A stretch of 63,421 nt of DNA, filler included, from Reclinomonas americana ATCC 50394 (taxonomy: Eukaryota): assembly GCA_048213135.1 (NCBI GenBank). It is 14 parts of 14 records of this genome, joined end to end, with 100 filler letters (N's around TTAATTAATTAA, not from the genome) between each part and the next. Parts side by side here need not be neighbours in the genome. Positions count along the whole stretch, not along the records: positions 24,155 to 32,519 come from AFZH01018271.1; 13 more parts are not named here. One strand, written 5' to 3'. A model generated the notes under the pieces. That model was given only the letters and a program-made list of their open reading frames with translations. It made no database searches and was not told the origin of the DNA. Position numbers and translations under genes: made by a program. The stretch's first letter is position 1, and each line of letters starts with the position of its first letter. Of this stretch, positions 26,839-62,800 are shown piece by piece.

Positions 26839-27186
26839 ACTCTCTCTCTCTCTCCCGCACAAATACACACACACACCTTGAATGCAACAACGAATCAAAC
26901 ATGAGTGCTTTCGCCTCTCGCGTCCCTCTCTCCCTCGCTCGCGCATTCTCGCACACCCCGCACTCTCTTCCTCACTCATCCATGACACGTGGCACAGCAG
27001 GCGACCATCAAACACGGGCGTGCTGCAGAAAGAAAGGTACGTCGGATGTCCCGCATGACATTGATCTCACGCACAGCACAACGTACACAGCCACGAGAAC
27101 ACGCCGACTGTCTGTGTGAGACGTGTATGCAGCAAGGTGCATCGTGCTGAAGAGCGAGAAAAGAAACAAAGAGCTGCGACGAGAAG

Positions 27187-30100
27187 ATGTCGGTGAGTTG
27201 TATTGATTGCGTGGGGGACGCTTGTTGCTCGCTTGCTTCTCCCTCTCTTCTCTCACTCTCATCACTTGTCGCTTACTGCATTGTGTGTGTGACAGTTCTC
27301 TGTGAATGTGAGTGCGGCGCATGATTCGTCGCTGTCGGTGGTGGTGGAGGGCATGTCTGCCATGTCCACTCTCGCGGACTTGCTGCGCGAGGCCACGCGC
27401 TTGCTGCGCGAGAAGAGTGGAGATGGGGAGATGGAGATTGTGGGAGTGGAGAAGCCTGTGCCGTACGACTTGGAGGATGCGAGCGTGACGAAGCTGAAGA
27501 CACTCGGCATCAACGCATCCACTCATCTCGTCGTCCGTGTGAATGTACGCGTGGCGCTGCAGTTGAGTGGAGAGAGTGGGAGTGGGAGCGGAAGGCATGT
27601 GTGCTGGATGGTTGCGAATCATCTCTCTGTGCCAAACATGCCACTCACTGTCGTGTCCTCGCGCAGCAACTCGGAGCGAGTGACTCGGTTTGTTTTTCTT
27701 GCCTTGTCATTCTCCTCTCTCCCCTGTTTGTTCTTCTCTCGATGTGAGTCTGTGCTGACTATGTGTGTGTGCATGCGCAGCATGATCAACTTCAACCGCA
27801 TCAACATGGCCTCTGAGGTGGTGGAGGAGGCGGTGCGTCTGCGCTGTCAACGCGCACTGGCGCAGTTCAGTCGCGATCATTCCGACTTTGATGTGCGGGC
27901 GTGGGTGCCGACATTCACGCCTGCCGGCATGGATGCGGCGGCAGTGAAGGCGTGGCGTGAGCGGCATGCTCCACTCCATCCATCTCGAGTCAAGTTGTTT
28001 GAGGAGAAGCAGTCGGTGGTATTGGCTTGGCGTGCTGCATTCGACGCCGACCCCTCGTCCGACCCTCCCTGTGACGGTTTTGACACGACGGCACTCACGT
28101 CCATCGTGATGTATGGTGGCTTCGTTGTGGACGACCATCGCAAGCTGCAGCTGATACATGATGTTGATGAACGGAAGGCGGTGGAGGAGCTGAATGACGC
28201 GAGAAAGGCGTTGGCGCACAAGGACCTCGAGATGACGGATGCCACTGTGCATCAGTACCTTGGTGACGGCGGTGTCTTCTTCTTTATCCTCTCTCGACTG
28301 CAGGTCACGGCCGACGAGGGTGACCGATTCTCTGCTCGCATCTGCGAGGCACGTCACGCCCGTCACATCGTGGACACATTCGAGGAGCGACTGCATCGAC
28401 TGGCTCTGCGTGAGCTGTCGTTCTACCAGCACGACGAGAGTGTGCACAAGGACATGCAGATGTATGTGTCACTTCTGTGTTCACGTGATCGTGATGTCTC
28501 CTCGAGCGACAAGATGACGGATCTGCTGACCGAGGTGGATGCCTTCCTCTCCGAATTCAACACCACCCACCGTGTGCTGGTGCTTTTTGGCAACAGTGGA
28601 GCCGGCAAGACCACCGTCATGTCGGTGTTGGCCGAGCGAGCATGGCGACAGTGGCAGACGAGAGAGAGCAGACGAGTGCCTGTGCGTGTGCCTCTTGGTT
28701 CACTGCGCAATGCCGACGAGCGACTGTTGGAGGAGGCACTGGAGCGACTGTCACCCGAGTTGGGATTCAGTGAGTCGGATGTACGGCGGCTGAAGGAGGA
28801 ACCACTGCTGTTGTTGGTTGACGGGTACGACGAGTTGTATCGTGGTGTGAATCTGTTTGTCAAGAACCAGTTGGACGTGTGTCGCGATGTGAAGGTGATT
28901 ATCACCTGTCGTGGTGATTATGCACTGACGGCACTGGGTGGGCTGACGCAATATCGACGGTACTTTGCACCGGTGGATGCACGCGGACAGTTGTGCATGC
29001 AGCAGCTGATGGAGCGACACATTGCACCGTTCAACAAGGAGCAGATTGAGGATTACTTTGCGCGCCTGGTGCAAGTGGGTGGTGATGATGACGGTGAAGT
29101 GCGATGGTCGACTGCTGAAGAGTACATTCGTGCAATGGAGAGTGTACAAGGACTGGATGCACTTGTGTCGAATCCGTTCCTGCTGGCAGTGGTGGCTCGT
29201 GTGTTGCCGCAGTTGGTTGCGAATGGTGTGCAGCGCCCGACTCGGCGTGATGTGTTTGACCGATTCATTCGACAGTGGATTGTGAGGGAACAAGAGAGAC
29301 AGACGCGTCTTGGCGCGGAGCGTGTGCCGAGTGAGGAGACGTGTCTCGCATTCTGTGAGGGACTGGCACGGTTGATGCACGAGCGAAATGTGGTTCGTGT
29401 TTCTGTGACTGAGAGTCGGTCAGATGATGAAGGGGAGGAGGATGACTTTGGTGGTGCGCCACTCGCCTTACGGCAAATGGAAGAGGGACCGATTGACAAG
29501 TTCCTCGGCCGCAAGAACCAGCATGTGCGAGTGTGCTGTCCGATTGTGCGACGGTATGGGACGACGCAATGGGGATTTGTGCATCTGTCGTTGCTGGAGC
29601 ACTGTGTGGCGCGGCATGTGTTTGCGTGGGAGACGTGGGATGAAGAGAGGAGATTGACGGTGCAAGATGTGCAGCAGCATGTGTTGGGAGTGCGACTGCT
29701 GAACGACAGACCATCGTTGGTGGAGCAGATGGCCGAGGTGGTGCGACGGTCTCCTCGATTGCAAGCGAGACTGTGGGAGGTGATTGAGATGTCACGAGTG
29801 GTGGACAGTCGGCGAATTGTGACGGCAGCAGCGAATGCAGCGACGGTGTTGTGTGTGGCACAAGTGTCGTTCAGTGGGCGGGATCTGTCGGGTGTGCGAG
29901 TGAGGGGTGCGGATTTGAGGGATGCGGTAATGCACCGGACGGTGTGGAGGGGAGCGGATTTGCGTGGGGTGAACGTGTGCATGGCGTATGCGAGGGAGGC
30001 GGATTTCCGGGGGGCGGATATGACGAGCGTGAGGTGGCCGAGGAAGCCGCTGAAGGGGCACACGAGTGTGGTGTCTGCAGTGGCAGTGACACCCGATGGC

Positions 30101-31975
30101 CAGCACATTGTGAGTGGCAGTGTGGACAAGACTGTACGGGTGTGGTCGGTGACAAGCGGTGAGGAGGTGCGCCGACTGATAGGTCACACGAGGCACGTGT
30201 GGGCAGTGGCAATGACACCCGATGGCCGGCACATTGTGAGTGGGAGTGAGGACAAGACTGTGCGGTTGTGGTCGCTGGCAAATGGCGAGGAGATGCGCCG
30301 ACTGGAGGGACACACGAGTGAGGTGCATGCAGTGACAGTGACACCCGATGGCCAGCACATTGTGAGTGGCAGTTCGGATAACACTGTACGGGTGTGGTCG
30401 GTGGCGAGTGGCGGGGAGGTGCGCCGCCTGGAAGGCCACACGAGCGCTGTGTTTGCAGTGGCAGTGACTCCCGATGGCCAGTACATTGTGAGTGGTAGTG
30501 ATGACAAAATTGTTCTGGTGTGGTCACTGGCGAGCGGCGAGGAGGTATGTCGACTGGAAGGCCATACGGGCGAGGTGTATGCAGTGACAGTTACACCCGA
30601 TGGCCAGCACATTGTGAGTGTCAGTGGTGACCAGACAGTTCGGATGTGGTCGGCGGCAAGTGGCGAGGAGGTGCGCCGACTGGAAGGCCACACAAGGGAG
30701 GTGTGGTCAGTGGCAGTGACACCCGATGGCCAGCACATTGTGAGTGGCAGTGGGGATAGGACTGTGCGCGTATGGTCACTCGCAAGTGGCGAAGAGGTTC
30801 ACCGACTGGAAGGCCATACCGATTCTGTGGATGCAATGGCAGTGACACCCGATGGCCAGCATGTTGTGAGTGGCAGTGGTGACAGGACTGTACGGGTGTG
30901 GTCGGTTGCAAGTGGTGAGGAGGTGCGTCGACTGGAAGGACACGCTGGTGTGGTGCCGGCAGTGGCAGTGACACCCGATGGCGAGCACATTGTGAGTGGC
31001 AGTCGGGATAATACGGTGCGGGTGTGGTCGGTGGCAATCGGCGTGGAGATGTACCGACTGGAAGGCCATACCGATTCTGTAGATGCAGTGGCCGTGACAC
31101 CCGATGGTCAGCGCATTGTGAGTGGCAGTCATGACAAGACTGTACGAGTGTGGTCCGTGGAAAGTGGCGAGGAGGTGCGCCGACTGGAAGGCCACACGGG
31201 CTGGGTACGAGCAGTGGCATTGACACCCGATGGCCAGCACATTGTGAGTGGCAGTTCGGATAACACTGTACGGGTGTGGTCGGTGGCAAGTGGCGAGGAG
31301 GTGCGCCGATTGGTGGGACACACGGGTGAGGTGAATGCAGTGGCAGTGGCACCCGATGGCCAGCATATTGTGAGTGGCAGTAATGACAATACTGTACGGG
31401 TGTGGTCGATGGCAAGTGGCGAGGAGGTGCGTCGATTGGTGGGACACACGTGGGTGGTACTCGCAGTGGCAGTGACACCCGATGGTCAGCACATTGTGAG
31501 TGGCAGTTATGACGAGACTGAACGGATGTGGTCGCTGGCAAATGGCGAGGAGGTGCGCCGATTGGAAGGCCACAAGAGTTGGGTGTGTGCAGTGGCAGTG
31601 ACACACGATGGTCAGCACGTTGTGAGTGGCAGTAATGGCGGGACTGTGCGGGTGTGGTCACTGGCTAGTGGCGAGGAGATGCGCCGACTGGAAGGCCACA
31701 CGAGTTCGGTGTATGCAGTGGCAGTGACACCCGATGGCCAGCACATTGTGAGTGGCAGTGATGACCATACTGTACGGGTGTGGTCGCTGTCAAGTGGCGA
31801 GGAGGTTCGCCGACTGGAAGGCCACACTGGTGAGGTGTATGCAGTGGCAGTGGCACCCGATGTCCAGCATACTGTTCCGAGGGGGAAGGATGCAGCTGTT
31901 GTGCGCCGTCGTCAAGGACTGCTCGAGCGCATTTTCGGCTCCTTCCTGCCTGATTTCACCGATGTAATTCGGTGA
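27187..31975 (+). CDS. NLR-like STAND protein: ubiquitin-like + HEPN-like + NACHT + pentapeptide repeats + WD40 repeats (NWD/HET-E-like)
   Basis: ATG-TCG then GTGAGT at 27187-27198, spliced in frame to 27296. Walker A GNSGAGKTT (~28589), Walker B LLLLVDGYDEL, VIITCR, NPFLL and FVHLSLLEH winged-helix motif. Pentapeptides FSGRDLSGVRVRGADLRDA...ADFRGADM. Then 14 full GH...WS-type WD40 repeats. Probable in-frame introns at 27595-27666 and 27688-27780. Confidence 0.92.
30050..31880 (+). repeat. Coding tandem array of 126-nt (42-aa) WD40 repeats: 14 complete plus 1 degenerate
   Basis: Consensus LEGHTxxVxAVAVTPDGQHIVSGSxDxTVRVWSxASGEEVRR, recurring every 126 nt with high nucleotide similarity. Confidence 0.95.
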
Positions 31976-32336
31976 TAATCACAACTGCGAGCGTGTATGA
32001 ACCCTCGAGTGTAAACCGGATTAATTGCAATGAGATTGCATGTGATGTAGACCCTCAAGTTGCATGCCGTGTGTGTTGATTGACCATAACGAGGTAATCC
32101 GCTCGTTGCCCACCTCCTCTGTTAGAAGAAACCTCAGCGACCTGACGATGCACTGCACAGCCTGTTTATCTGATGTGTCTCCTCTGCTTATTGCTCACCA
32201 TTTGTGGCCAACAGCTACCACTTTGTGAGCATACTCGGTTGCCCGTATGTCATAGTCCCGACTTCGGCTCTCGTAGTCGGTATGCCAACAGCTTCCTGTC
32301 CATGTTTGGAAACCACTGCTGCTTCCGTTCGCTCGC

Positions 32337-35300
32337 TTGTGTGACCAGTGTCGAGTGCCGATGCTTTCACTCCTTCCACCATCACCGGTTAGCTGCGCGC
32401 TGCTGACTGTTACCGGTCACGGATCGCTGGCATCGGATAATGTGCAGCTGATGCCATCTGGAACGTGTTCGGGGGCGACTGCCTATCGTCTCGCAGCGCA
32501 GTCGTTTGGCGGAGTGGCANNNNNNNNNNNNNNNNNNNNNNNNNNNNNNNNNNNNNNNNNNNNTTAATTAATTAANNNNNNNNNNNNNNNNNNNNNNNNN
32601 NNNNNNNNNNNNNNNNNNNTCGGCTCGTGAGGTTGTCGTGGCGACGACTACGGAGAGCTCTGTGCCTGTTGGATCATTCTATGTGTGGTGAGTGGGGAGG
32701 GGAAGGAAAGGGGGGAGGAGAAGGGAAGGGGAAAAGAGGAGAAGTGAAGGGAGGAGAGGAGAAGGGAAATGGGTGAAGGGAAGGAAGAGAAGAATAAGGG
32801 AAGAAAGGAGAGGAGAAGGAGGAGAAGGGAAGAGAGGAAATGAAGAGAATGTGTGAGAGGGGGGATGAGAGGAAAGATGAGAGGAGATAAAGGAATGTAA
32901 GAGAAAGGAGAGGGGAAGAACTGAGAGAAGAGAGAAGGTGAGAGGTGAGATGGAGTGAATAGAAACTGGGACCAATGAGATTGTGCGGTTGTTTTCCGTG
33001 TGCGAGAGTTTGTCCAGTGTGACTGTGTGTATATATGTGAGTTTGTGAGCGAGGGCGAGAGACGAGACCAGCTCAGCCGGCAGGGATAAAAAGGAGGTGA
33101 AGAGAGGAGGAACGGGGAAGTAACGGTGAATAGAATGAGTGAGTATTAAGATGCGTCATGTGGCCAGAGAGACACTTAGAATGAAAGCATGTATGTTGAG
33201 CGAGGTGCACGAGTTTACGTTGGAATAGAGCCCTGTATTGCAGAGGATAGTGGATGGACTTTGTAGACTGGAGACATTTGCAGCATTCCTGGTCGTTGGT
33301 CGTGGTTTCTTTGTATGTTTTATTGTCGAATCGTGTCAAAAGCTCGTTTTCCTTTCTGTTACTCTCCGTGAGAAGCGAGCTTGAGTCAGTGTGAATGTAT
33401 TCCATTCACTCACACTGTGTATTACAGCATTCAATTTGGTGGCGTCGGATCGTTTACTGCCGTCGCTGGTGGCCAGCTTACCGTCTGTGAGTACGAGTGG
33501 AAGAGTGCGAAGAGTGCAGAGATCGAAATGAGTTGCTCATGTGCTTGTGTTTTTCGGCAGTGCCGTTGCCAACATTTTCATTCCCAACTGTGGCGTCGTC
33601 GTACACGGTGACAATCGGCAACACAACCACTATTGGTACGGTCACCCAGCACGTCATGCTCACATCTATCATCCTTCTCATACTCCTGCATCTGTCTGTA
33701 GTCACTGGCGCAACAACATCGAGCACAATCGGTCTTCGCGTCGGTTTGTCCGGACAAGTGGTGGTGTTGACGGTGCCAGTGGCCTCGTTCCCCTTTGCCA
33801 CGCCGTCANNNNNNNNNNNNNNNNNNNNNNNNNNNNNNNNNNNNNNNNNNNNTTAATTAATTAANNNNNNNNNNNNNNNNNNNNNNNNNNNNNNNNNNNN
33901 NNNNNNNNTTTACACTGTTCAAGAACGCCGACTGCCGCGGGAATGTGGCCACCATCATCAGCGGCTTCAACATCGCGTCTGATGGCACGACCTATACCAT
34001 CACATTCACATTCGACACGACTGGAGAGCCAACACCAACGAAGCAGCAGTTGTGCCTGTCGTCCACTGATCTGGCAGGCTACTTTAGCCTGGCGTCTGTA
34101 TCCATTTGTTGCGTTCCTGCTGGAGATGTTATGCTGTCATGTTTATTTCCTTTTTCTTTTAACGAGGCGACCATGCAGATCGTGTCAAGAGCACTTCCGC
34201 GCCGTCCATATCCCAGGGCATCAAGTCGCAAACTGTTGTCTTGTCGGGTGGTGACTTCCCGTTGCTGGCTACAAGTGCCGCCAATGGCAGTAATCCAGTC
34301 ACACCTGGAGGCACACCACTGGCATTCTTCTTGTCACTCGCCACCGACTGTTCGTCGATGGACTTGCGGGCGGCTGCCTTTGTGATCAGTGCGGTGTCGC
34401 CGACGCGTATTACGGCCACGGTTTCCACCATTTCTGCGGTCTCACTCGCCTCGTGCACGCTGGATCCGCCTGGCACGTATCAAATTTGTGGTCGGTGTTA
34501 CGAAGGGAAAGAGGGAAGGGAGGGGAGGGGGAGGGGGAAAGGGAGGGGAGGGAGAAAGAGGGTGGAGGGGGGAAGGCGGAGAAGGGGGAGGGGGGAACGA
34601 CGGTGAAGGAAGAGAGGCAGGGGAGAGAGAGAACAGAAACGTTGAGTGAGATATGAGCGAGGGGGGATGGTGATAGAGAAAGGGCGTGAGAGTGGATGGT
34701 GTGGGGCACAAAGAACAAGCAGTGGGTGCCGGGAGGAGAGATGAAGTAAAGCGGGAGAGGCAGGTGAGCCACGAAGTAGACCGTCTGTATGTGCGAGAGA
34801 ATGGTGGGATGTGAATGAGAGGGCGGTTGCGAGAGGCAAGAGGGCTGAGGAGCAATAGGATAAGTGAGTGAGAGGCTGCAGGTGAGCCACGTATATGCGA
34901 GAGATATGCGAGGATGTGAACGAGAGCGCGGTTGCGAGAGGCAAGACGGCTGAGGAGGAATAGGAAAAATGATTGAGAGGCTGCAGGTGAGCCACGTATG
35001 TGCGAGAGCTACGAGAGGATGTGAATGAGAGGGAGGCTGCGAGCGTCAAGAGGGCTGAGGAACAGTAGGAAAAATGAGTGAGAGGCTGCAGTAGACCGTC
35101 TGTATGTGCGAGAGATACGCGAGGATGTGAATGAGAGGGCGGCTGCGTGAGGCAAGAGAGCAGAGGAGCAATAGGAAAATGAGCGTGAGAGACTGCATGC
35201 ACGAATGAATGGGACATTTTGTCATTCTCTTTCATGTTCAACGAGAAAAAAGTGGAAGGATAAGAGAGAATGCGACGGATCTAATGACGTTTCACCACCG

Positions 35301-57931: not shown

Positions 57932-58407
57932 TCAGTGACTGACGACACCGATGGTACTTTTCATGAAGTGGTGGCAATGGAAATCCACAGCATGCAAGCG
58001 CACCAGGTCAGTGTGCGATTGCAAGAGAGAAGCTTGGAAAGAAGTGCCGAAGAGAGCGCGAGAAACGAAGAGAGAGAGAGGGAGGGAGGGAGGGATCGGA
58101 GAACATATGTGCATCTGAGAGTTGCAGATATTGATTACAAAGCAGTGCAGAGAGACAGAGACNNNNNNNNNNNNNNNNNNNNNNNNNNNNNNNNNNNNNN
58201 NNNNNNTTAATTAATTAANNNNNNNNNNNNNNNNNNNNNNNNNNNNNNNNNNNNNNNNNNNNGAGAGAGAGAAAGAGAAAGAGAGAGGAGAAGGAGAAGG
58301 AGAGGAAGGAGAAGAAAAAGAGAAGAAAAAAGAGAAGAAAGTTGTGCCCTTTCGTTCCAGTTTTATGTTGCGATGCGCAGCGCGCCCTATCCACTTCGCT
58401 CAGCACA

Positions 58408-59876: not shown

Positions 59877-62800
59877 TCACACCACATCCGTCTCAAAACA
59901 AGCACCCCCCACCAAAACCACCGCCGACGGGGTCCTGTTACTCGCGGCAATCGCGATCGGCGATTCCTCCGCCACAGCCACAGCGACCCAAAGATAGGTC
60001 GGATAGGTGGTAGTCAGACTCGTCGTCTTCCACGTCGCGCCACCATCCGTTGATCGCTGAATGTTGGTACGATTGGGCGAGCCGGAGAGCCGCAAATAAG
60101 TCGAGTAAATAGATCCATCGGCAGCGCGGAGGGTAACGTCGGTGAAATAGCTGGAAAGCGAAGCATTGTCGATTCTGGTCCACGTCCTCGCGCCGTCGAA
60201 ACTCTCGCGAACTCCATTCACAAGTGCAGCAGCCAAGACGGTCGAACCGGTATGATCGACATGGAGTCTGTAAAACTGCGTCACATCAGCCGGTCCGCCA
60301 AGAGCAGTCCAAGTGACACCCAGGTCGGCCGACACGAAGTTGTGGTGGGAGTTGACTTGCGAGGCGTACAGCAACCGCCCGTCGCCGCTCAATTCCACGG
60401 CATTCACGTACGCGAACACACCCATGGGCAAGCTGCGCTGCGCCCATGTATAGCCACCATCCGTCGACACAGCAATGTCGTCATCGATGCCAGCAGCAGA
60501 GACGACCACTGTCGTGCCGTCCTCGCTCATCGTTATCGACTGGAAAGAGACGTTGGAACCGGTGGACACGCCAGTCCAAGTCGCCCCACCGTTCTCAGAG
60601 ATCCGAACGTCCACCGGCTTGGCTGTGGTGATGGCGGCCAGCCTTCCCCCGTCGGTTCTCATCACAACGGCGGCCACGAGCAGAGAAGCGGTGTTGCTGA
60701 GGACTTTCGTCCATGTCGCGCCCAGGTCTTGCGAAGTGAAAACGCCACCGGATGGGTCTGGATACGAGACAGCAAGGTTTCGACCACTGCGACTGGTTGC
60801 AACAGTCGGTATGTAGCCGGCCAAGACGCCGATCGGGGGGCTGAAGCGCTGCAGGCAAGAGGCCGCGCAGATTGCCACAGTCGCCGTCTGCTGCAAGCAC
60901 ACTTTTCCGCCCGTGCATGCCACCGTCACCGGCGCGCCATTGCATGAGAGCACGCTCATGCCGTCGGACGAGCACACTGACTCGCCGACGCCCAGCTGAC
61001 ACTGGCTGCAGTCCGATCCGAAGAAGCCAGTGGGACACTGCGGTGACGCACCGACAGTGACTCGGCCCACGGCGGTCCACGTGACAAGCGTCGTGTTGCC
61101 GGCTCCCGGATCCTCAGTGGCAAACGTAAAGCCAGTCACAAATGTCTCGCTGCCGACCACGTGCGTCTGCAACTCGAGCGAGCTGTTCAACACGTGGTGG
61201 CTGATCACGGCTCCGCCACCGGACTTGGACTTCCAGCCGCGCAAGAACAGCTGCGTCGATAGAGTATCGGCGAGCAGTCCATTCGGCGTGTCCACTGAAA
61301 TCAAGCTGACCGTGGCCGTGAGCGCATCAGAGGTGTGCGTGGTCTCTGTTTTGGTGGACAGGCGTGAGAGGTGCCTCCCAATCAAGCGAAGAGAGACACG
61401 ACAGCAGCACACGCACCACCAGCTCGCATGACAAACCCCGTACGGTTTGAAGCATCTTCACGAGCAGGGCCAAAGGCGACTCGCGCATACAGACGCTCTA
61501 CTTGCGCGTCGCCGGTGACAATGCCAAGAATGTCGCCTTGTGTGCGGCTGACAGATCCGTGTGACAGCACAACGTTGTCAGAGAGAGTGGCGGATCCACC
61601 AGAAACAAGCGACGACCGTCGTCTGGCGCGCACGCCAGTCAGTGCGACGGCCAGTGTTGGCACGGATGCAAAGGGATACACGGTCGACACATTGCGTCGC
61701 TTCATTGACCAAGGTAAGCAAAACACCGCGTAGTATAATGAAATACCCGATCACACTCACCACCAGCACAGACTTGTTGGTGGCTGCACTGAGCCAACCA
61801 TTGCTACTCAGTTGAACAGTGCGCGTGAGAGTGAAGGCGTCGGAATGATGCACATAGTACGCGAGGTACGCTGCACGAATATGAATGACGATCGTGAGCA
61901 CAAAGTATTATCGAGGGAAGTTACACCCCACACAGACACTCTGTCTCTCTCATTCTCTCTCAGACTCTGTCAGTCTCTCTCTCTCTCCCATATCTCTCTC
62001 ACTCTCTTTTTCTCTCTCCCGCCACCTCCGTCTCTCCCCCTCTCTTCTCTTGCACACGCACACATGCATACACCAAGCACGACGACGCACTCAATTCAAT
62101 CTGCGGCACGTCGACAGCGTCGGCACTGGACATCACCACACACGAGACCACCACCTTCTTGCTCGTCACCGCCGGCTCGCCACAAAACACACTGGTGTCG
62201 CCCACAACGTCACTTGCGTCAACACTCGTGTATCCAGTGAGCCCGACAAGTACTTGCGGTGTGGCGTAGAACGCACGCGCAAAAGTGAAACTCGTGGTCG
62301 TGCGGGTCGACACCACGCCGGCATTCGGCGTCGCCATGGTGCTGAACGCGGATCGCTGCTGCGAATCTGTACCGCCGGCGGTGACAGTTGACTGGGTGGT
62401 GCCCATGGAGGACAGCTGCAGTGCGGCGGAGCTGACCACCACCGGTACTTGTCCAACCAAAACCGAGTAGCCCGACACCAGCAACTGGCCAGTCGATGTG
62501 TACGGTCCGTTGTTGATGGCCACACACAGGTTGGCGGCGGCACCGCCCGTCGGTGAATTGGGGGTGATCGACAGGCTGAAGAGGGAGCAGCCACCGCCCG
62601 AGGTCGACTTGCACAGCGACGGACCGAGTACGCTCAACGAAGCGCCGACGCCAGTGAGCACCGAGTCGTAGATCGGCGTGTCGCTGCACTGCTGTCCGAT
62701 GGCCACTAACTTGAATGTCGTGCAGGAGTTGAAGCCGTTGGTGATTGAGCCAACGTGGACGGTGTTGGCACGTCCAAATGCAAGCACATGCGGGTTCACG

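Follow-up and report, generated by a model that had tools for sequence, protein, structure and literature searches.

We examined a 63,421-nucleotide (nt) stretch of DNA from Reclinomonas americana ATCC 50394 (GenBank assembly GCA_048213135.1; hereafter the window), in which the contig AFZH01018271.1 carries a gene for a protein with a NACHT domain and WD40 repeats. A first-pass annotation had proposed that the region N-terminal to the NACHT domain (hereafter the head) is a HEPN ribonuclease (RNase) effector. The gene occupies a single long open frame on the plus strand, 27302-31975, which runs for 1557 codons from stop to stop, and its residues are numbered here from the ATG at 27806 (MASEVV...). 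The features are collected in Table 1.

The NACHT core is accompanied by a match to nSTAND1, which also exceeds its Pfam cut-off (28.6 versus 27.1 bits). The Walker A motif (GNSGAGKT, from residue 262) and a Walker B-like motif (LLLLVDGYDE, at residue 334) are both intact. The pentapeptide region is also MfpA-like (expectation value (E) 4e-6). Pfam matches WD40 in 15 stretches at E 3.8e-163, and the array has a tandem period of 126 nt with 14.4 copies and 80% matches. Its units are near-identical, and their variation (entropy peaks) is located at unit positions 4, 5, 7, 23, and 25. The chassis of NACHT, pentapeptide repeats, and hypervariable WD40 repeats is therefore real, as the first-pass annotation had it. 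The gene encodes a receptor of the type known as signal transduction ATPases with numerous domains (STAND), resembling the nucleotide-binding leucine-rich-repeat receptors (NLRs), with a C-terminal sensor, a central NACHT switch, and an N-terminal effector slot. The sensor consists of the pentapeptide repeats and two propellers' worth of near-identical, surface-hypervariable WD40 repeats. Guanine-cytosine (GC) content by codon position follows the same pattern in the head, NACHT, and WD40 regions.

At 31820-31975, the 15th WD40 unit leaves the repeat after about 15 residues and continues as a short unrelated sequence up to the stop codon; a frameshift or recombination event may have truncated the array there. 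On the minus strand, several long antisense and out-of-frame open reading frames (up to 358 codons) lie over the NACHT-WD40 gene at 29053-31661; they result from the repeat array and the composition and are not genes.

Table 1. Positions of the gene's features and of its contig, in window coordinates.
Feature	Position	Strand	Remarks
Gene-bearing contig	24155..32519	.	Flanked by artificial 100-nt spacers (44 N, TTAATTAATTAA, 44 N)
Upstream in-frame segment with coding-like signal	27302..27541	+	First ATG at 27353; the "UBL" of the first-pass annotation
Spacer without coding signal	27542..27805	+	-0.11 and -0.05 bits per codon; pyrimidine tract 27680-27745
N-terminal all-helical domain, candidate divergent HEPN-like effector	27806..28420	+	Residues 1-205; orphan at sequence level
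FDTTALTSIV (TTT GAC ACG ACG GCA CTC ACG TCC ATC GTG)	28079..28108	+	Placed by MAFFT on the family D..ALL helix; not beyond chance
HEPN_Swt1-matching stretch DERKAVEELNDARKALAHKDLEMTDAT	28166..28246	+	Residues 121-147; helix-3-like, with the Rx4H motif at its end; the only matching stretch
RKALAH (AGA AAG GCG TTG GCG CAC), candidate catalytic Rx4H	28202..28219	+	R133-H138; Lys in place of the family Asn
NACHT NTPase core	28571..28930	+	Residues 256-375; Pfam E 8.1e-9, 36.0 bits, cut-off 26.7
Pentapeptide repeats, best stretch	29864..29968	+	Residues 687-721; Pfam E 5.3e-7, 29.5 bits, cut-off 20.2
WD40 array, short tail, and stop codon	30056..31975	+	14 full 42-residue units and a broken 15th

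The seven nearest relatives of the NACHT region (P0004-P0010) share 25-30% identity with it over residues 200-700. They have the same chassis of NACHT, a helical region, pentapeptide repeats, and WD40, but their heads do not resemble the head described here (blastp best E 0.22). The head is a PRTase-CE domain in P0007, ParA with an Mrr-type nuclease in P0010, and tetratricopeptide repeats (TPR) in P0004. One relative comes from the fungus Linnemannia gamsii, and P0010 has close copies in Acidobacteriota-type metagenome genomes. Since the chassis is common and the heads differ, the head position is a swappable slot, which holds enzymes in relatives. As P0007 and P0010 show clearly, heads have been swapped on a receptor body that is conserved in fungi, bacteria, and the present source.

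A Swt1-like helix in the head

The first-pass annotation placed the putative HEPN domain at 27781-28330, directly N-terminal to the NACHT domain. This segment is indeed N-terminal to NACHT but does not adjoin it, as about 80 residues (28331-28570) intervene. Its two landmarks, FDTTALTSIV and RKALAH, read as that annotation gave them, both within the open frame, and the translated context of RKALAH is DERKAVEELNDARKALAHKDLEMTD. In the 253 residues before NACHT, Rx4-6H occurs six times against 3.2 expected (5000 shuffles; P of at least six = 0.088), and shuffling leaves at least one Rx4-6H in 97% of cases and at least one Rx4H in 70%. The bare motif is at chance level here, but its extended context is not: ERKAVEELNDARKALAH, the 17-27 residues that surround RKALAH, resembles the catalytic helix of Swt1-like HEPN domains beyond chance.

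This likeness was measured with profiles of our own, built from HEPN_Swt1 domains gathered from bacterial genomes with matches in 3 of 5, 34 of 301, 12 of 401, and 40 of 401 genomes; three host frames of the gathered domains were confirmed as PF18731 by Pfam. In one-sequence searches, a profile of 33 cyanobacterial domains scores 7.5 bits (E 1.8e-4) against the 245-residue head, and two broader profiles of 33 and 73 domains score 9.5 and 9.8 bits (E 4.8e-5 and 3.6e-5). Every profile alignment places RKALAH on the family motif RNxWAH and DERKAVEELNDARKALAHKDLEMTDAT on ..ERslVsELrevRNkWAH..fs.dd, and Ala137 and Glu128-Leu129 of the family helix are retained in the head. The observed score is reached by 4 of 5000 shuffled heads, or 7 of 5000 with the Arg and His fixed, and those of the broader profiles by 2 and 1 of 5001. 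Among 767 real open-frame segments from the fetched loci and the window, 73 reach the score; 72 of them lie in the loci fetched for PF18731 and one is the present region itself, so that none of the 694 other segments does so. The helix alone (27 residues) scores 14.3 bits, a value attained by none of 3000 shuffles (best 12.2).

Scans against the 24736 families of Pfam point to the same place. For segments of 27, 51, and 77 residues, PF18731 (HEPN_Swt1) is the sole family reported (E 0.046, 0.018, and 0.033; profile positions 73-100 of 115), with scores of 14.4-15.8 bits. The match appears for short segments because a short query passes the filters of HMMER. When the head is cut into 13 tiles of 51 residues, the two tiles that hold the helix match PF18731 (E 0.019 and 0.032), and the remaining 11 yield either no match or noise (E 0.11-0.26). 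None of 40 nonsense tiles from antisense frames gives a match at E ≤ 0.05. No match to HEPN_DZIP3, the other profile named in the first-pass annotation, appears at E ≤ 10 for the head, the 13 tiles, or the three segments in searches whose HMMER filters drop most weak matches, so that a remote relation to that family may still exist. In a feature search of the ESM Atlas, the first match is a cluster with PF18731 in 99% of its members, at a weak score of 0.78, and 6 of the 10 best family-bearing matches share a family or clan with the best.

The position of the motif in predicted structures is similar to that in known HEPN domains. A single-sequence AlphaFold2 model of the head is helical but unusable as a fold (predicted local distance difference test (pLDDT) 38), with the helix ending at residue 139. 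A model made with our alignment of the head and the family (A1), which is unreliable outside one helix, is also helical (pLDDT 67, predicted template modelling score 0.49), with the helix ending at residue 137. In both models, RKALAH (133-138) lies where a helix gives way to a loop, and the place described for Rx4-6H in the HEPN superfamily is likewise where core helix-3 passes into the next loop (PMC3710099).

Possible nature of the head

Judging from its sequence, the head of about 200 residues is most likely a very divergent HEPN-superfamily domain, whose helix-3 (R133...H138) is still Swt1/Ava_2192-like. We assign a probability of roughly 0.4 to the more specific reading that it is a divergent, active HEPN effector on a STAND receptor and works by the mechanism outlined below. 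The HEPN call of the first-pass annotation is thus partly supported, by one helix (121-147) that matches the Swt1-like family; the whole head has no family match, and the flanks of the helix behave like shuffled sequence.

Several results weigh against the HEPN assignment and make it quite possible that the head is instead a lineage-specific helical domain unrelated to HEPN (an adaptor, an oligomerisation module, or another effector), in which the pattern ER..V.EL...R...AH would resemble that of HEPN_Swt1 through coincidence or because an amphipathic helix has converged on it. The first is the confinement of the signal to 17-27 residues. When the family profile is split into three parts, the entire signal sits in one helix. 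Against residues 1-119, the N-terminal part scores -0.8 bits (E 0.11); against residues 139-245, the C-terminal part scores 0.2 bits (E 0.035), at a non-collinear place. At the 31 conserved columns outside the helix, the head has 8 identities against a shuffle mean of 9.1, which 582 of 755 shuffles equal or beat; over all 40 conserved columns it has 15 identities, where shuffles average 12.0 and 110 of 755 reach its count. A collinear MAFFT alignment that pairs RCQRAL with RVGRAL, FDTTAL with D.SALL, and MTDAT with STDDA was rejected as evidence, since shuffled heads do equally well outside the helix. The features "FDxxxL" and "TD" therefore add nothing measurable, and the upstream FDxxxL helix and downstream TD to which the first-pass annotation appealed carry no signal beyond shuffles. 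In favour of the HEPN reading, HEPN families are described as poorly conserved outside the motif (PMC3710099).

The second is the absence of a match over the whole domain. At E ≤ 10, the whole head (residues 1-245) matches no family in Pfam, NCBIfam, or PADLOC, and the short-segment scores for PF18731 lie well below its gathering cut-off of 27.5 bits. Alignment of the head with the family alignment by hhalign gives P 0.021-0.044 and a probability of 1-2%, and 8 of 406 shuffles reach the score. Homologues of the head were equally elusive: none of 3498 candidates from a word-index search with residues 1-250 could be scored as a match, and phmmer found no real one among 1.84 billion representatives, its two matches being read as artefacts in which tandem-repeat proteins are matched in 10 and 6 stretches. 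A language-model search with residues 55-200, limited to named clusters, found no usable match. By sequence, the only match of the head in the PDB is WipB at E 1.3, which is no relative, and within the window the head occurs only once, the next best tblastn match having E 0.49. The structural comparison foreseen in the first-pass annotation likewise produced no usable fold match, as Foldseek finds nothing in the PDB at E ≤ 0.001 for the head model (best E 1.9). The predicted homodimer of the head scored 0.00 with the alignment unused and the fold uncertain, and is evidence neither way. When longer proteins were searched with a profile of alignment A1, none of 7999 candidates was scored, not even the known DUF499 fusions, which makes this search uninformative. 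Abi_2, a sister HEPN family, occurs in only 2 of 251 genomes, too few for a second profile.

The third concerns how the motif was chosen. It was picked by eye among many possible ones, which inflates the later targeted tests; the bare Rx4-6H is expected by chance, and the short Pfam segments were selected with the motif's location already known. On the other side of the balance, PF18731, which alone among the 24736 Pfam families is reported for the helix, had been predicted in advance, and the independent language-model search puts the same family first. The helix E-value is reached by none of the 40 nonsense tiles and none of the 11 other head tiles, and the profile score by none of the 694 non-family segments. 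These points count against an unrelated head.

Several near-invariant residues of the family are absent from the head, which speaks against a HEPN domain altogether and, where they adjoin the motif, against an active one. Gly105 stands at the position of a Trp kept in 33 of 33 family rows, Gln150 at that of an Arg (94%), and Asp109 at that of a Phe (85%). Lys134 replaces the Asn that follows the Arg in 91% of family rows, a substitution to which the first-pass annotation had already drawn attention and which we confirm. In the HEPN superfamily, the residue right after the Arg is mostly Asn, Asp, or His, and a second conserved acidic residue is located in helix-2, typically as Ex3[KR] (PMC3710099). 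The head shows no counterpart of Ex3[KR] at the place that MAFFT aligns with E-R-E-[LM]-K, where the alignment is no better than chance. Since this holds for the alignment everywhere outside helix-3, the place of the helix-2 motif is uncertain.

It is conceivable but improbable that the head is HEPN-derived and catalytically dead, serving as an RNA-binding or interaction module, as has been proposed for eukaryotic Swt1 HEPN. The Lys in place of the near-invariant Asn and the missing helix-2 acidic motif fit this explanation, and the published survey lists inactive Swt1-type HEPN domains and describes a contribution of the polar residue after the Arg to KEN catalysis (PMC3710099). However, the motif has both its Arg and its His, the head retains Ala137 and Glu128-Leu129, the Asn is also missing from a few divergent members of the family (RAPIAH in locus L122, RGPIAH in locus L118), and the heads of relatives in the same slot include enzymes. 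A decaying or misassembled gene, with no function to be read into its head, is very improbable, since the fragmentary assembly with 13 artificial spacers in 63 kb, the broken 15th WD40 unit, and the 5' stretch without coding signal inside the open frame are outweighed by 1557 codons without a stop, intact Walker A and B motifs, and the codon-position GC pattern shared by head, NACHT, and WD40.

For the active-effector reading, we infer a HEPN fold over the whole head, catalysis, dimerisation, and an immune or cell-death role. HEPN RNases build composite sites from two Rx4-6H motifs. By extension from what is established for STAND NTPases and HEPN RNases, a ligand would bind to the hypervariable WD40 surface and release the NACHT domain, which would exchange its nucleotide and oligomerise, and oligomerisation would bring the heads together. 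If the head is an active HEPN domain, two R133/H138 Rx4H motifs would then pair into a metal-independent RNase site, and the resulting RNA cleavage would lead to growth arrest or death of the cell.

Comparison with known HEPN systems

The first-pass annotation did not recognise the full architecture as described. It is less novel than that suggests, since HEPN-NACHT proteins are documented in animals (DZIP3, CXorf38) and HEPN domains on STAND NTPases in bacteria (PMC3710099, PMC8260672). Such precedents for an N-terminal HEPN domain on NACHT and STAND proteins in animals and bacteria (PMC3710099, PMC8260672, bioRxiv 10.1101/2022.07.19.500537) support the HEPN reading of the head. According to PMC3710099, the HEPN-NACHT fusions belong to the DZIP3 and CXorf38 families in animals, with N-terminal HEPN domains on STAND NTPases in bacteria. 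Among the titles and abstracts listed in literature searches, none describes a Swt1-type HEPN domain on a NACHT-pentapeptide-WD40 protein.

A close parallel in design is the DZIP3/hRUL138-like group of cnidarians and other invertebrates, in which an N-terminal RNase-type HEPN head stands on a NACHT domain with repeat sensors (PMC3710099 Table 1, PMC8260672). These DZIP3-HEPN-NACHT proteins number 17-83 per anthozoan genome (PMC8260672) and show expansion with fast variation, and their logic is the one proposed in the first-pass annotation. The two differ in that DZIP3-type heads are recognised by Pfam HEPN_DZIP3, whereas the present head resembles the Swt1-like family only, and in that the DZIP3-type proteins are animal, whereas the nearest NACHT relatives here include a fungus. 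The HEPN domain of CXorf38, a member of the Swt1-like group, is combined with NACHT and DEATH in cephalochordates and cnidarians, and thus represents a Swt1-group HEPN-NACHT protein in a eukaryote, which is predicted to be active and immune-related (PMC3710099). CXorf38 carries a Zn-ribbon inserted in its HEPN domain (PMC3710099); neither such a feature nor a direct similarity was seen in the present head.

In bacteria, the Ava_2192-type Swt1-like HEPN domains have the helix eRslVsELrevRNkWAH, which is the best match to ERKAVEELNDARKALAH, and they are fused to a DUF499 AAA+ ATPase (PMC3710099), with HEPN N-terminal to the NTPase, as the head is in the present gene. They are the sequences gathered here for the profiles. 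Bacterial Swt1-like domains score 25-147 bits on PF18731, whereas the present head scores 14-16 bits and in the helix only. Their partners are DUF499, RNase III with a double-stranded-RNA-binding domain, or AAA_35 with dynamin, whereas here the partner is NACHT-WD40. In the cyanobacterial loci L105 (1399-2652) and L111 (1-3078), HEPN_Swt1 stands on RNase III with a double-stranded-RNA-binding motif, and between an AAA_35/ATPase_2 module and a dynamin-like GTPase. The eukaryotic copies of the Ava_2192/Swt1-type domain, from Naegleria, dictyostelids, and Daphnia, are described as solo domains (PMC3710099).

The same logic of effector, NTPase, and repeat sensor is found in bacterial NACHT/STAND defence proteins (bioRxiv 10.1101/2022.07.19.500537, PMC3710099, PMC8195603). 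For bacterial NACHT proteins, the RNase effectors reported include HEPN, and the sensors include beta-propellers and pentapeptide repeats (bioRxiv 10.1101/2022.07.19.500537). Those systems are prokaryotic, and the present head matches no PADLOC model. HEPN is also described together with WD40 in oyster TRADD-N proteins (PMC8195603).

The gene plausibly belongs to a known kind, the nuclease-armed STAND receptor, and its points of note are the non-animal setting and a head that is an orphan and very divergent. Published HEPN-NACHT fusions date back to 2013, and no new mechanism is opened. Should the head prove to be a working HEPN RNase, the design of NTPase switch, RNase head, and repeat sensor, known from NLRs of cnidarians and other invertebrates and from anti-phage STAND proteins of bacteria, would have been assembled again in another eukaryotic lineage, on a chassis common to fungi and bacteria. 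It would then be a data point for the modular, repeated evolution of cell-autonomous immunity, and a small testable effector of about 200 residues. We regard as rather unlikely the bolder proposal that the head is a new, fast-evolved HEPN family of a non-animal eukaryote, derived from the bacterial Ava_2192/Swt1-type clade and the first on a NACHT-pentapeptide-hypervariable-WD40 receptor, possibly with a ubiquitin-like exon. If it were true, an RNase-armed NLR would have been assembled independently outside Metazoa and Bacteria.

Upstream segment and assembly context

The first-pass annotation included a ubiquitin-like domain ("UBL") upstream of the head. No ubiquitin-type Pfam family matches 27302-27700, 27353-27541, or 27302-27541 at E ≤ 10, and the label finds no support from profiles; the first two segments match no Pfam family at all, and the third gives only a noise match to Methyltransf_8 (E 0.11). 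A coding signal is nevertheless present in 27302-27541, where GC by codon position is 0.64/0.40/0.78, the gene's own pattern, and the codon usage of the gene gives +0.35 bits per codon in frame 0 only. The 264-nt spacer that follows may be a 5' leader, or it may reflect a 210-nt in-frame intron that would run from GTGAAT at 27539 to AG at 27747-27748. Within the spacer or at its end lie in-frame ATGs at 27762, 27782, and 27806, and alternative starts at one of these are a possible alternative to the intron, as far as the sequence indicates.

The window contains 13 identical 100-nt spacers, at 5881-5980, 10985-11084, 14978-15077, 20239-20338, 24055-24154, 32520-32619, 33809-33908, 38657-38756, 39844-39943, 41239-41338, 43826-43925, 52042-52141, and 58163-58262. 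Each consists of 44 N, TTAATTAATTAA, and 44 N, with stop codons in all six frames. Because these spacers are artificial, the window is a joining of at least 14 small contigs, and gene order and strand across the spacers are therefore no evidence of linkage. A kinetoplastid-like polycistronic reading of the window was rejected for the same reason, as its N runs are artificial contig spacers. ATG-started frames of at least 250 codons number only 13 in the 63-kb window, which, together with the fungal protein among the nearest relatives, makes a eukaryotic source plausible. On other contigs, frames at 22527-23735, 44165-46781, 49992-51821, and 59877-60959 match BNR/Sortilin-Vps10, Chlamydia-PMP-repeat, and right-handed beta-helix families, which suggests that the same assembly encodes families of secreted or surface repeat proteins.

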